Source: a virus. Taken from it: a stretch of DNA of 35,580 nucleotides. The first letter of the stretch is position 1. Every line of letters begins with the position of its first letter. Positions 624 through 3,209 of the stretch are shown here, piece after piece. Below the pieces are notes generated by a model that made no database searches, was not told where the DNA came from, and was given only the letters and a program-made list of their open reading frames with translations. The stretch is from the UHGV virus genome UHGV-0000037, one strand, 5' to 3'. The translations under genes and the position numbers were made by a program.

Positions 624-1100
624 TTAAGCCGCCCTCACGATATAGTTAAATGCGATATTGCGGGGGCGAGTTTCACTACCACCAGTGTTACCAATACTCC
701 CTCGTGAATGAAGTGTCGGTGATGGGATCAGACTCCCGCCTGTACTTGTGGCATCAAGTCCCCGTCCTTGTGTATATGTTTTTTTGAAAATTGTGGCCAA
801 CTCCCATTCATCCTTTGTGTCATACCCATCGTTAGCTACAACAATATGGCGGTGTTTTTCCAGCATCCCAGTTTGAAAGCTTAATAAAGCACGTCCTGCA
901 TCAATCCCTCGCCCGTCATCCCAGCCACGAATAAACTCGCCCCGTAAATCCGGTAATTTATTGGTGGGGTAAGCCTTTGCCAGTTTGGGGTACATTTCAG
1001 AAGAAAATGCTGCGCCGTTACATTTCAGCCACCCTGCTGGCGGTGTGGCTGAGGGCCACGGAACGGGCACACCAACGGGCAGCGCTGAGCCTTCCCCCAA
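624..1100 (-). CDS. Tail-fibre C-terminal tip cassette 4 (collar-domain receptor-binding module, no ATG or RBS)
   Basis: Begins at the conserved LGEGSALPVGVPVPWPSATPP...LPDLRGEFIRGWDDGRG block (TTG in-frame) and ends ETRPRNIAFNYIVRAA-stop; middle ~60 aa unique. Confidence 0.5.
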   Translation of the reverse strand: MGEGSALPVGVPVPWPSATPPAGWLKCNGAAFSSEMYPKLAKAYPTNKLPDLRGEFIRGWDDGRGIDAGRALLSFQTGMLEKHRHIVVANDGYDTKDEWELATIFKKTYTQGRGLDATSTGGSLIPSPTLHSRGSIGNTGGSETRPRNIAFNYIVRAA

Positions 1101-1117
1101 ACCAACGTTTCTATGCC
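1092..1117. other. Degenerate hix-like site at the cassette 3/4 junction (direct orientation)
   Basis: TTCCCCCAAACC-AA-CGTTTCTATGCC. Confidence 0.45.
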
Positions 1118-1644
1118 GCCCTTACGATGTAATTAAACGCAATGTTACGGGGGCGGGTTTCTGCTGCGCCGACAATACTGGTACTTAGACCCGTTGCTGT
1201 TCGTTTGTTATTTTTATTCCCTTCGATAAGACAGTTGTAATCGTCATTACCAATTAACGAATTGGTGGCATCAATACCGTCCGGTGACAAGGCATTAGTT
1301 GTGGAACTTAAAGTCAGCATCTCGTCTGAACTTGGAAGATTTTTTAATGGGATTTCATTGCGTGAAATACCCGCATAAAAAAATGACTCATGCCTGTGCG
1401 CTTCAAAAGAGTCATCCTGAAGACTTAGCAAGGCTCGCCCCGCATCCACGCCACGTCCGTCATCCCAGCCACGGATAAACTCACCCCGTAGATCCGGTAG
1501 TTTATTTGTAGGATAAGCCTTTGCCAGATTGGGGTACATTTCAGAAGAAAATGCTGCGCCGTTACATTTCAGCCACCCTGCTGGCGGTGTGGCTGAGGGC
1601 CACGGAACGGGGACACCAACGGGCAGCGCCGAGCCTTCCCCCAA
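1111..1644 (-). CDS. Tail-fibre C-terminal tip cassette 3 (collar-domain module, start-less)
   Basis: Same conserved N-terminal ~70 aa and C-terminal ETRPRNIAFNYIVRAA; unique middle ~90 aa. Confidence 0.5.
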   Translation of the reverse strand: MGEGSALPVGVPVPWPSATPPAGWLKCNGAAFSSEMYPNLAKAYPTNKLPDLRGEFIRGWDDGRGVDAGRALLSLQDDSFEAHRHESFFYAGISRNEIPLKNLPSSDEMLTLSSTTNALSPDGIDATNSLIGNDDYNCLIEGNKNNKRTATGLSTSIVGAAETRPRNIAFNYIVRAA

Positions 1645-1661
1645 ACCAACGTTTTCATGCG
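1636..1661. other. Degenerate hix-like site at the cassette 2/3 junction (direct orientation)
   Basis: TTCCCCCAAACC-AA-CGTTTTCATGCG. Confidence 0.45.
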
Positions 1662-2245
1662 GCTCTTACGATGTAATTAAAAGCAACGTTGCGCGGACGT
1701 GTTTCTGTAGCTGTTTTAGGTTTGTTTAGTCCTGGGTTATACCATCCTGTACTGGCTCTATAAGTACGCAAAGAAGAACGCAAAGCCTCACTTGAGTTAG
1801 CTAACTCAATATTATTTCCGACAGGCTTACCATCACTACGGATATAAATTTTTGACTGAGAATAATCATCCCATTGACCGCTACTGGTTACATTCCCTGT
1901 ATAGTGCATGCCATCAGAGAAAGCGGCATAAACATCATTTTCAGTGCTACCTTTCTCAATACCTGCATATCCCTGATTGGTAGGTAGCCCCAGAGCATGA
2001 TCTTCAAACGCAAAATCCTGAGCACTCAGTAATGTTCGCCACGCATCCACGCCACGTCCGTCATCCCAGCCACGGATAAATTCACCGCGTAAATCCGGTA
2101 ATTTATTCGTGGGGTAAGCCTGTGCCAGATTGGGGTACATTTCAGAAGAAAATGCTGCGCCGTTGCATTTCAGCCATCCCTCTGGCGGTGTGGCTGACGG
2201 CCATGGAACAGGCACACCAACAGGCAGTGCAGAGCCTTCCCCCAA
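1655..2245 (-). CDS. Tail-fibre C-terminal tip cassette 2 (collar-domain module, start-less)
   Basis: Same conserved ends (ETRPRNVAFNYIVRAA); unique middle ~110 aa; lies in the +1 frame directly after the stop of cassette 1. Confidence 0.5.
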   Translation of the reverse strand: MGEGSALPVGVPVPWPSATPPEGWLKCNGAAFSSEMYPNLAQAYPTNKLPDLRGEFIRGWDDGRGVDAWRTLLSAQDFAFEDHALGLPTNQGYAGIEKGSTENDVYAAFSDGMHYTGNVTSSGQWDDYSQSKIYIRSDGKPVGNNIELANSSEALRSSLRTYRASTGWYNPGLNKPKTATETRPRNVAFNYIVRAA

Positions 2246-2262
2246 ACCAACGTTTCTATGCC
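2237..2262. other. Degenerate hix-like site at the cassette 1/2 junction (direct orientation)
   Basis: TTCCCCCAAACC-AA-CGTTTCTATGCC: left half identical to the site at 2717, right half supplied by the conserved 3' end of the preceding cassette. Confidence 0.45.
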
Positions 2263-3209
2263 GCTCTTACGATGTAATTAAATGCAATATTACGCGGACG
2301 AGCTGATACATAAGCCCACCAGTCATATTTTTGTGCACCTTTACTGGATGCATCAAATATCCACTTTTTGCCATTTATGGCCCCCCATTGATTAGAGGTT
2401 AGAGTGTCACCAAATCCGTATTGTGTTGAGCTAAGTGAACTGATATCCCCAGTATCATTATCATCAAAACCGGAGACGATAGTGCCTTCCTGAAATGAAA
2501 GTATCTCTCGTCCTGCATCAATACCTCGTCCGTCATCCCAGCCACGGATAAATTCGCCCCGTAAATCCGGTAATTTATTCGTGGGGTAAGCCTTTGCCAG
2601 ATTGGGGTACATTTCAGAAGAAAATGCTGCACCGTTACATTTCAGCCACCCTGTTGGCGGTGTGGCTGACGGCCATGGAACAGGCACACCAACAGGTAGT
2701 GCAGAGCCTTCCCCCAAACCAAGGTTTTTGACAAACAGCGCAGGCTCAGGAATATCTGCGCCGTTCTGGTCTTTAGCCAGCTTTTCCGCCAGCTTGTTCA
2801 GTACCGTAGTCGCAAAGTTTGGATCATTACCGAGAGCGTCAGCCAGCTCTTTAAGCGTATCCAGTGTCTCAGGGGCGCTGCCTGCAAGTGCCGCAAGTGC
2901 TTTGGACACAAACTCCGTCGTCGCCAGCTTTTTGCTGTTATCACCATTTGCAGGTGTAGGTGCTGTTGGTGTGCCGGTGAATGTCGGACTGGCTTTCGTC
3001 GCGTACTGGGTATGCGGGTCAACTGCCGCGATATGTGCAGCCAGGTCTGTTCCGCTTTTTTCGACCTTCTGTTTGAGGTATGACGTTCGGCTGGCCAGTT
3101 GTTTAGCCTGGCGGTTAGAAATTCCGTCAGGTCCGCCCAGAACGGGGTCAGAGACCTCAATCTGGTAGATGCCGCTTTCCCACTGCGGGGTTTCGGGTAG
3201 ATTTGCCAT
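2256..3209 (-). CDS. Tail fibre protein: constant N-terminal shaft fused to tip cassette 1
   Basis: ATG at 3209-3207; N-terminus MANLPETPQWESGIYQIEVSDPVLGGPDG is typical of Mu S / P2 H-type fibres; the C-terminal half carries the collar-like motif (PxGWLxCNG...LPDLRG) shared with cassettes 2-4. Confidence 0.8.
   Translation of the reverse strand: MANLPETPQWESGIYQIEVSDPVLGGPDGISNRQAKQLASRTSYLKQKVEKSGTDLAAHIAAVDPHTQYATKASPTFTGTPTAPTPANGDNSKKLATTEFVSKALAALAGSAPETLDTLKELADALGNDPNFATTVLNKLAEKLAKDQNGADIPEPALFVKNLGLGEGSALPVGVPVPWPSATPPTGWLKCNGAAFSSEMYPNLAKAYPTNKLPDLRGEFIRGWDDGRGIDAGREILSFQEGTIVSGFDDNDTGDISSLSSTQYGFGDTLTSNQWGAINGKKWIFDASSKGAQKYDWWAYVSARPRNIAFNYIVRAA
2717..2742. other. hix/gix-type 26-bp crossover site inside the tail-fibre gene at the constant/variable junction
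   Basis: TTCCCCCAAACC-AA-GGTTTTTGACAA. The right half matches the hixL half-site GGTTTTTGATAA (as I recall it) at 11/12; dyad core AAACC-AA-GGTTT. Homology with the cassette copies ends exactly at the central AA. Confidence 0.6.

Follow-up and report, generated by a model that had tools for sequence, protein, structure and literature searches.

What brings a tail-fibre gene to be followed, on the same strand, by a row of further fibre tips that have no start of their own? The question is raised by the virus genome UHGV-0000037, a stretch of 35,580 nucleotides (nt) that was analysed at its full length (here called the window) and is the entire record CAOCQX010000001.1. A first-pass annotation of these letters had proposed that the tips were alternative receptor-binding parts, exchanged at hix/gix-type sites by a serine invertase of the Gin/Hin family. 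Such an invertase, its sites and natural isomers of the locus were all found, and we read the locus as a Min-type switch in which multiple DNA inversion changes the receptor-binding tip carried by a prophage tail fibre, with a probability of about 0.9.

On rechecking the list of open reading frames (ORFs), the positions given earlier for the fibre gene and three start-less cassettes all held. The fibre ORF (3209..2256, minus strand) began with ATG, encoded 317 amino acids (aa) and lay directly behind the P2-type baseplate genes gpJ and gpI. Downstream of it were three ORFs without ATG (2245..1655, 1644..1111 and 1100..624), in which only an internal TTG was seen. The constant part and the cassettes (V1 to V4) were delimited as follows; RBS stands for ribosome-binding site, and E for a two-ended invertible segment described below.

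2723-3209, minus strand: shaft, the constant 5′ part of the tail-fibre gene, ~162 codons, beginning with ATG directly after a P2 gpI-like gene
2256-2720, minus strand: tip cassette V1, fused in frame to the shaft, with a collar, a 65-aa variable middle and a conserved C-terminus
1655-2248, minus strand: silent tip cassette V2, 197 codons, without ATG or RBS
1111-1647, minus strand: silent tip cassette V3, 178 codons, with an HxH motif after the collar; a homologue of the T4 gp37 tip
624-1103, minus strand: silent tip cassette V4, 159 codons, the left arm of segment E

V1 is the tip expressed in the window isomer, because it is in frame with the shaft. Its collar domain matched Pfam Collar (PF07484, E-value 4e-14), and a Pfam tail-collar domain was present in every tip. 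The cassettes not joined to the shaft are silent because they are without start codon and RBS; the silent cassettes were spaced by 10 nt, again with neither ATG nor RBS, and transcripts of the late operon probably extend over them without being translated there. In the complete E. coli genome M114 (locus L002; L numbers denote the sequences compared with the window), the V2 cassette (L002 7047-7646) had a premature stop (TCA to TTA) and was labelled a pseudogene by PGAP, which indicates that unexpressed cassettes can decay.

All cassettes were built alike. After a shared half-site, their 5′ parts were near-identical over ~219 nt (the earlier estimate had been ~210 bp), with 191-200 of 219 nt (87-91%) and 67-71 of 73 aa identical between cassettes. 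The middles (65-108 aa) gave only 13-25 identical residues in pairwise alignments, in line with the earlier statement that they were unrelated. The last 16 codons, previously described as the same in all, were conserved at 13-16 of 16 positions: tip 1 ended in ..VSARPRNIAFNYIVRAA (SARPRN.. and not ETRPRN..), and tip 2 had RNV. V3 resembled the distal tip of T4 gp37 (PDB 2XGF, E-value 3e-19), having in common with it the collar, an aligned HxH (AHRH vs AHSH) and the C-terminal NIAFNYIVR. This homology offers an explanation for the conservation of both cassette ends: by analogy, the first 73 and last 16 codons would form a gp37-like collar docking on the shaft, and the variable middle would be the receptor-contacting needle or head. 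The tip is single and fixed in T4 (gp37, gp12), whereas here the tips are interchangeable and V1, V5 and V7 are without HxH. By this motif the tips fell into two classes. In V3, V4 and V6, and also in V8, V10 and V11 on plasmid L008, the collar was directly followed by an HxH motif like that of the metal-binding tips of T4 gp37 and gp12; V2 had DHALG at that position, and the motif was absent from V1, V5 and V7.

The junctions between these parts were marked by a repeated site. The 14-mer TTCCCCCAAACCAA had exactly four plus-strand copies in the window, at 1092, 1636, 2237 and 2709; 0.38 matches at ≤2 mismatches were expected from shuffled sequence, and the observed count was reached in none of 100 shuffles. 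All four 26-bp sites consisted of a common cassette-side half, TTCCCCCAAACC, a core AA and a variable outer half. No strand is assigned to them.

2709-2734: crossover site 1, at the shaft/tip junction, TTCCCCCAAACC AA GGTTTTTGACAA, core at 2721-2722
2237-2262: crossover site 2, outer half CGTTTCTATGCC, which is the stop codon and end of V1
1636-1661: crossover site 3, outer half CGTTTTCATGCG, the end of V2
1092-1117: crossover site 4, outer half CGTTTCTATGCC, the end of V3

The last 12 nt of the shaft (2723-2734) thus serve as the outer half-site of site 1. Site 1 had been called a dyad; it was present at 2709-2734 as described, with a symmetry that proved imperfect (8 of 12 positions). The likeness between the shaft junction and the cassette junctions stopped at the central dinucleotide, as had been claimed, and beyond it the outer half-sites agreed at 5 of 12 bases. 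Compared with gixL of phage Mu, the half-sites matched at 10/12 and 9/12 positions and the core differed (TT/AA here, TC/GA in Mu). The sites of the locus fit the consensus given in PMC4134206, and the half-site GGTTTGGGGGAA followed by a TT core is also that of the crossover site of prophage Phi2 in EC958 (PMC4134206).

The window ended where the rest of such a system might be sought. Its first gene was read as follows.

1-617, plus strand: tail-fibre assembly (chaperone) gene tfa, convergent with the cassettes, inside segment E, without the A of its ATG

The product matched Pfam Caudo_TAP (E-value 9e-26) and was 99.5% identical to the Tfa of M114 over residues 2-206. A tblastn search of the window found neither an invertase nor a copy of cassette V6, and the window held no inverted site either. 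A contig of 92,933 nt from a Hadza gut metagenome (L012) carried the same fibre gene (exact protein match), was identical to the window over 13,209 nt (0 mismatches) and ran on past window position 1. There it contained the following.

L012 13210-13713, inverted relative to V1-V4: fifth cassette, V6, collar-type; its stop overlaps the start of tfa (TAATG)
L012 13704-13729, opposite in orientation to sites 1-4: crossover site 5, inverted, TTCCCCCAAACC AA CGTTTTCGTCTT
L012 13785-14357, 68 nt beyond site 5: invertase gene, intact, 190 aa, with Resolvase and HTH_7 domains

Host genes resumed 20 nt after the invertase gene. In the M114 copy of the invertase (99% similar), Resolvase and HTH_7 were matched with E-values of 2e-51 and 1e-13, and the Gin structures 4m6f/3uj3 with 3e-90; the L012 protein itself was identical to Mu Gin at 137 of 190 positions (72%). 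The distance of 68 nt between site and invertase ATG was close to the 67 nt between the G-segment boundary and the start of gin in Mu. The first 120 nt of the invertase gene shared 21-27 of every 30 nt with gin per 30-nt window, a likeness that is uninformative alone. With NCBIfam, neither the fibre nor Tfa could be assigned to a specific family and the invertase had only sub-threshold matches; a protein cluster look-up gave no curated name for the invertase. The invertase shared a 90% cluster with invertases on ~96-kb contigs; recorded contigs carrying its sequence numbered 825 for the M114 type and 326 for the type of strain 8178.

A serine recombinase and an inverted site, which the first-pass annotation had expected on extension to the left, were thus found on DNA identical to the window; the recombinational enhancer expected with them was not identified. 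The parts needed to recognise the system are missing from the record because it ends one base into the tfa start codon, a boundary due either to provirus trimming or to an assembly break at a repeat. For the same reason the all-direct layout of the cassettes had looked unusual and integron-like. The four cassettes inside the window are indeed direct, and a fifth, V6, lies inverted on the same DNA just outside it, so the judgement that the orientation is unusual does not stand.

Relatives of the window showed the locus in other arrangements. M114, 99% identical to the window, had the order shaft-V1, V2, V3, V6-tfa, inverted V4, invertase, and so differed from the window by inversion of segment E (V4..tfa..V6) alone. 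A second lineage occupied one chromosomal site (yehR/btsSR), where 3,500 nt of flank on the invertase side had 0 mismatches, and occurred there in four arrangements.

Mouse E. coli 8178: V1, V5; then E
Mouse E. coli FEA3: V1, V5; then E′
Mouse E. coli DEF10: V1; then E′; then −V5
Mouse E. coli DEF2: V5; then E′; then −V1

In DEF2, V5 was on the shaft and V1 was now silent, inverted and adjoining the invertase. Further permutations, with up to six cassettes, were found in L006, L007, L011, L013, L014 and L016; the crossover sites numbered five at the window locus and six in L006, L007, L011 and L013. V1 was a silent inverted cassette in L006 and DEF2 (L009) and a silent forward one in L007, and V4 was inverted and adjoined the invertase in M114, FEA3 (L005) and L016. 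Tips displaced by a new shaft fusion were kept in inverted form (V1 in DEF2, V1/V3 in L006). All 12 typed loci obeyed one grammar, namely forward cassettes, one two-ended segment, inverted cassettes. A fixed arrangement in all relatives, or the lack of a nearby recombinase, had been named beforehand as signs against an active switch; both are contradicted by these many isomers and by the L012 invertase.

Cassette content also varied. L011, L013, L014 and L016 all encoded an identical 317-aa shaft-V1 protein and carried four to six cassettes, among them V12 and V13 in L011 and V7 in L013 and L016. Such variation in close prophages indicates that cassettes are often gained and lost, and homologous recombination probably explains gain and loss between relatives.

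Fusions of the shaft to other tips were found among public proteins. The 164-aa shaft N-terminus, at 99-100% identity, was joined to V1, V2, V3, V4 and at least 10 other tips, in proteins from E. coli, Salmonella (including Typhi), Klebsiella and Enterobacter. The fusion to V4 measured 322 aa (P0028/P0029 and others), that to V3 341 aa (P0061/L007) and that to V2 360 aa (P0091/L006); in the last, with 37 member sequences, the shaft was identical and the variable part 99% identical to those of the window.

The breakpoints of the exchanges lay at the sites. In the window-like lineage four different upstream contexts were counted for V3, three for V2 and two each for V1 and V7, and the 219-nt 5′ regions of V1, V2, V3 and V7 were unchanged in most or all copies, whatever lay upstream. 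The 12 nt upstream of the core were always those of the neighbour; the outer contexts meeting TT plus GGTTTGGGGGAA included TTGTCAAAAACC at the shaft and AAGACGAAAACG at the invertase flank. The first cassette-specific single-nucleotide polymorphism (SNP) stood at nt 18, and SNPs from there on travelled with the cassette; nt 18-27 read ..CTGCACTACCTG in V1, ..CTGCACTGCCTG in V2, ..CGGCGCTGCCCG in V3 and ..CAGCGCTGCCCG in V4. Exchange must therefore fall within the core and no more than the 17 nt next to it, in keeping with site-specific recombination.

From these data the following mechanism is proposed. The promoter, the start codon and ~162 shaft codons are fixed, and five 3′ cassettes are stored: V1-V4 in the window, and V6, with the sole tfa, at and beyond its left end. 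Every cassette opens with the same 12-bp half-site and AA/TT core. A dimer of the Gin-family serine invertase would bind each 26-bp site, and a Fis-bound enhancer would assemble the invertasome; the enhancer-bound invertasome of this family aligns sites for inversion (PMC3798978). The enzyme would pair one forward with one inverted site and cut both at the 2-bp core; the cut ends would rotate by 180 degrees and be religated, so that everything between them is inverted, and only the cassette joined to the shaft would be translated. The dependence on Fis and enhancer, the 2-bp staggered double-strand cut and the resulting change of host range are predicted by analogy.

In segment E, V4 and V6 face each other and a cassette half-site stands at both ends, whereas each of the other segments has such a half-site on one side only, its opposite end being an outer one. 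Since only forward and inverted sites can recombine, and E is two-ended, every inversion includes E; hence all isomers read shaft, forward cassettes, E, inverted cassettes, invertase. A breadth-first search counted 48 isomers where E is combined with three single segments, as at the window locus, and 240 where it is combined with four. Starting from the window isomer, a single inversion would bring V6 to the shaft, and two would be needed for V2, V3 or V4; one inversion led from the window to the M114 arrangement. The all-direct layout, with E at the far right, accounted for 12 of the 48 isomers (one quarter), and layouts of this type were also seen in L007 and L011, with six cassettes.

Several points weigh against this reading. 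The window itself is without invertase and inverted site, and the case rests on the identical metagenome contig and on relatives. The evidence from isomers is comparative, the coverage of the sample assembly was ~6.6x, and activity in the lysogen of the window is a prediction. No Fis sites or enhancer were identified in the 5′ part of the invertase gene. There is a single tfa for all five tips; it stands after V6 and, in the window isomer with V1 as the expressed tip, is antisense to the fibre operon. Three isolates of strain 8178 had one arrangement, so the rate of switching is not such as to give each isolate an arrangement of its own. Finally, the 5′ part of V4 bore conversion tracts with V6-like bases at nt 18-90 (some to 127 or 165) in L002 (9590-9807), L011 (12488-12700) and L016 (5600-5814), which indicates that gene conversion or homologous recombination acts on the 219-nt repeats besides inversion.

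Some of these points suit other explanations. The common arrangement of the 8178 isolates, like the premature stop in V2 of M114 as a mark of decay in a silent cassette, would fit a locus whose arrangement was made by an invertase system and is now fixed in this lysogen, for example through poor expression of the invertase or a defective prophage, with the silent cassettes inert. That the locus is such a relic is improbable, given that the invertase ORF on L012 is full length with both Pfam domains, that the invariant half-site and core are kept in five of five sites, that all cassettes in the window are open and that near-identical relatives differ by clean inversions. The conversion tracts lead to the idea that RecA-dependent recombination between the 219-nt, ~90% identical 5′ repeats is the main driver and that the 26-bp sites are ancestral remnants. 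The repeats are long enough for RecA, and the varying number and content of cassettes at loci with an identical shaft-V1 protein fit deletion or homologous replacement. Crossovers spread over 219 nt would, however, make mosaics in most events, and SNPs from nt 18 to 219 stayed with their cassettes across the contexts counted above; together with an intact Gin-family invertase at the canonical distance from the last site, this makes RecA a very improbable main driver.

The four direct sites within the window, and the different cassette sets of relatives, could also be taken for an integron-like reservoir, in which direct-repeat sites excise or insert cassettes and a deletion brings a new tip to the shaft. 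We find this scarcely credible: an inverted fifth site lies on the same DNA, the inversion-only grammar fits 12 of 12 loci, displaced tips are retained in inverted form and not lost, the recombinase is a small serine invertase and not an IntI-type tyrosine integrase, and the enhancer-bound invertasome of its family aligns sites for inversion (PMC3798978). With a serine invertase, Din-type 26-bp sites and displaced cassettes kept inverted, the locus shows no integron feature and does not belong to the integrons. A mis-assembled tandem array was rejected as well, the complete M114 genome having the same V1-V2-V3 order at 99% identity. The Min-type inversion switch thus remains our reading of the locus.

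The single tfa deserves separate comment. One tfa serves five or six tips, and it flips with E independently of the tip fused to the shaft (the window, L002, L005, L006, L009, L010 and L016); several relatives have it in the same orientation as the operon while expressing a tip other than V6. For the L012 locus, a weak scan for promoters and terminators gave no driver of tfa from the invertase side, with one promoter-like match against 5.7 expected. The switch could conceivably have two layers, the orientation of E setting co-transcription of tfa with the fibre operon independently of the choice of tip; we consider this doubtful. If it were true, there would be Tfa-dependent (V6) and Tfa-independent classes of tip, or else about half of the isomers, that of the window included, would be fibre-defective, and inversion would control the on/off state of the chaperone as well as the choice of tip.

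The switch resembles several known systems. The Min multiple-inversion system of the plasmid prophage p15B was reportedly described by Sandmeier, Iida and Arber in 1990-1992. In p15B a serine invertase produces several tail-fibre types by multiple inversions (PMC6109161). Like Min, the present locus has a Din-family invertase acting on more than two sites, overlapping invertible segments and one constant 5′ part of the fibre that is joined to several alternative 3′ ends. It differs in its host: the element here is chromosomal, a BcepMu-like transposable prophage whose baseplate is of P2 type and whose shaft measures 164 aa, with five cassettes and a single tfa, in contrast to a P1-like plasmid with a fibre of ~800 aa; the two are likened by description, not by sequence (X62121). 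The number of isomers of p15B is 240, and the six-cassette relatives found here also give 240.

Two-site versions of such switches are G/Gin of Mu, C/Cin of P1 and P/Pin of e14. The order in Mu is the same: constant part, site, variable part, inverted variable part, site, 67-68 nt and the invertase at the phage end. Mu has two sites, two tips, two tfa genes (U and U′) and 2 isomers, whereas the corresponding numbers here are five, five, one and 48. EC958 Phi2 shares the half-site GGTTTGGGGGAA and TT core, and has a ~197-bp conserved repeat and a collar in the invertible 3′ part; alternative PacBio contigs directly revealed its inversion (PMC4134206). It differs in being a two-site, single segment of 2,067 bp in another prophage, with a longer, repeat-containing shaft. 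In a P2-like prophage, Goldberg et al. (2014) described a tail-fibre switch with three repeats and four variants, all of which coexisted in culture (PMC4272514). That system is likened to the present one by description: both have more than two inverted repeats and several C-termini for one protein, and that of Goldberg has three sites and three tips. The tyrosine shufflons (Rin of a Bifidobacterium prophage; Rci/pilV of R64) follow the same logic of a constant 5′ part and tandem variable 3′ cassettes, a short site ahead of each, with the recombinase at the far end, but use a tyrosine recombinase and short asymmetric sites, unlike the Gin-type serine enzyme here. The recombinase being of the serine family and not an Rci-type tyrosine enzyme, the locus is not an R64-type shufflon.

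Related cassettes were present on a plasmid. The P1-like plasmid pSA186_4 (L008, NZ_CP022733; 2421-9936) carried at least six cassettes, with V1-type (98%) and V4-type (94%) tips among them; its invertase and that of M114 were 95% identical, which is indirect evidence that the latter may be orthologous to Min of p15B. The shared tip types and invertase indicate that tip cassettes circulate between P1-like plasmids and this prophage; they may all belong to one pool that P1-like plasmids and BcepMu-like prophages share and exchange by way of the conserved ends.

The remainder of the window identified it as a BcepMu-like transposable prophage, with an rve transposase (28419-30185), an AAA ATPase (30160-31362), a P2-type tail and baseplate, a Mu-type portal and a T4-type terminase (element regions 27501-31362 and 18414-21220). 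Among phage records the closest was that of Escherichia phage PhiKM (Bcepmuvirus), which covered 78% of a 24-kb query with an identity of 94.8%. To our knowledge, no Min-type cluster has been described for a BcepMu-like element specifically. The 8178/FEA3 lineage had an extra 876-nt gene between the baseplate genes V and W (L001 3130-4005, compared with window 5227-5280), labelled a hypothetical protein in 8178 and a PD-(D/E)XK nuclease domain protein in FEA3, DEF2 and DEF10; it was absent from the window and M114 and may have entered the tail module as cargo or for defence.

The mechanism is already known, and current understanding of it is unchanged by this locus. The locus shows the Min-type multi-cassette design, described in 1990 for a single plasmid, to be common among the chromosomal prophages of E. 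coli, Salmonella and their relatives. Such loci are broken at their repeats by provirus trimming and short-read assembly, and in annotations each silent cassette figures as a gene of its own, named "phage tail protein". Having collar ends that are fixed and a middle that varies, the natural cassettes are ready modules for engineering the specificity of phages or tailocins. For the temperate phage, the switch amounts to hedging of host range, in that one lysogen could release particles with any of five tips.

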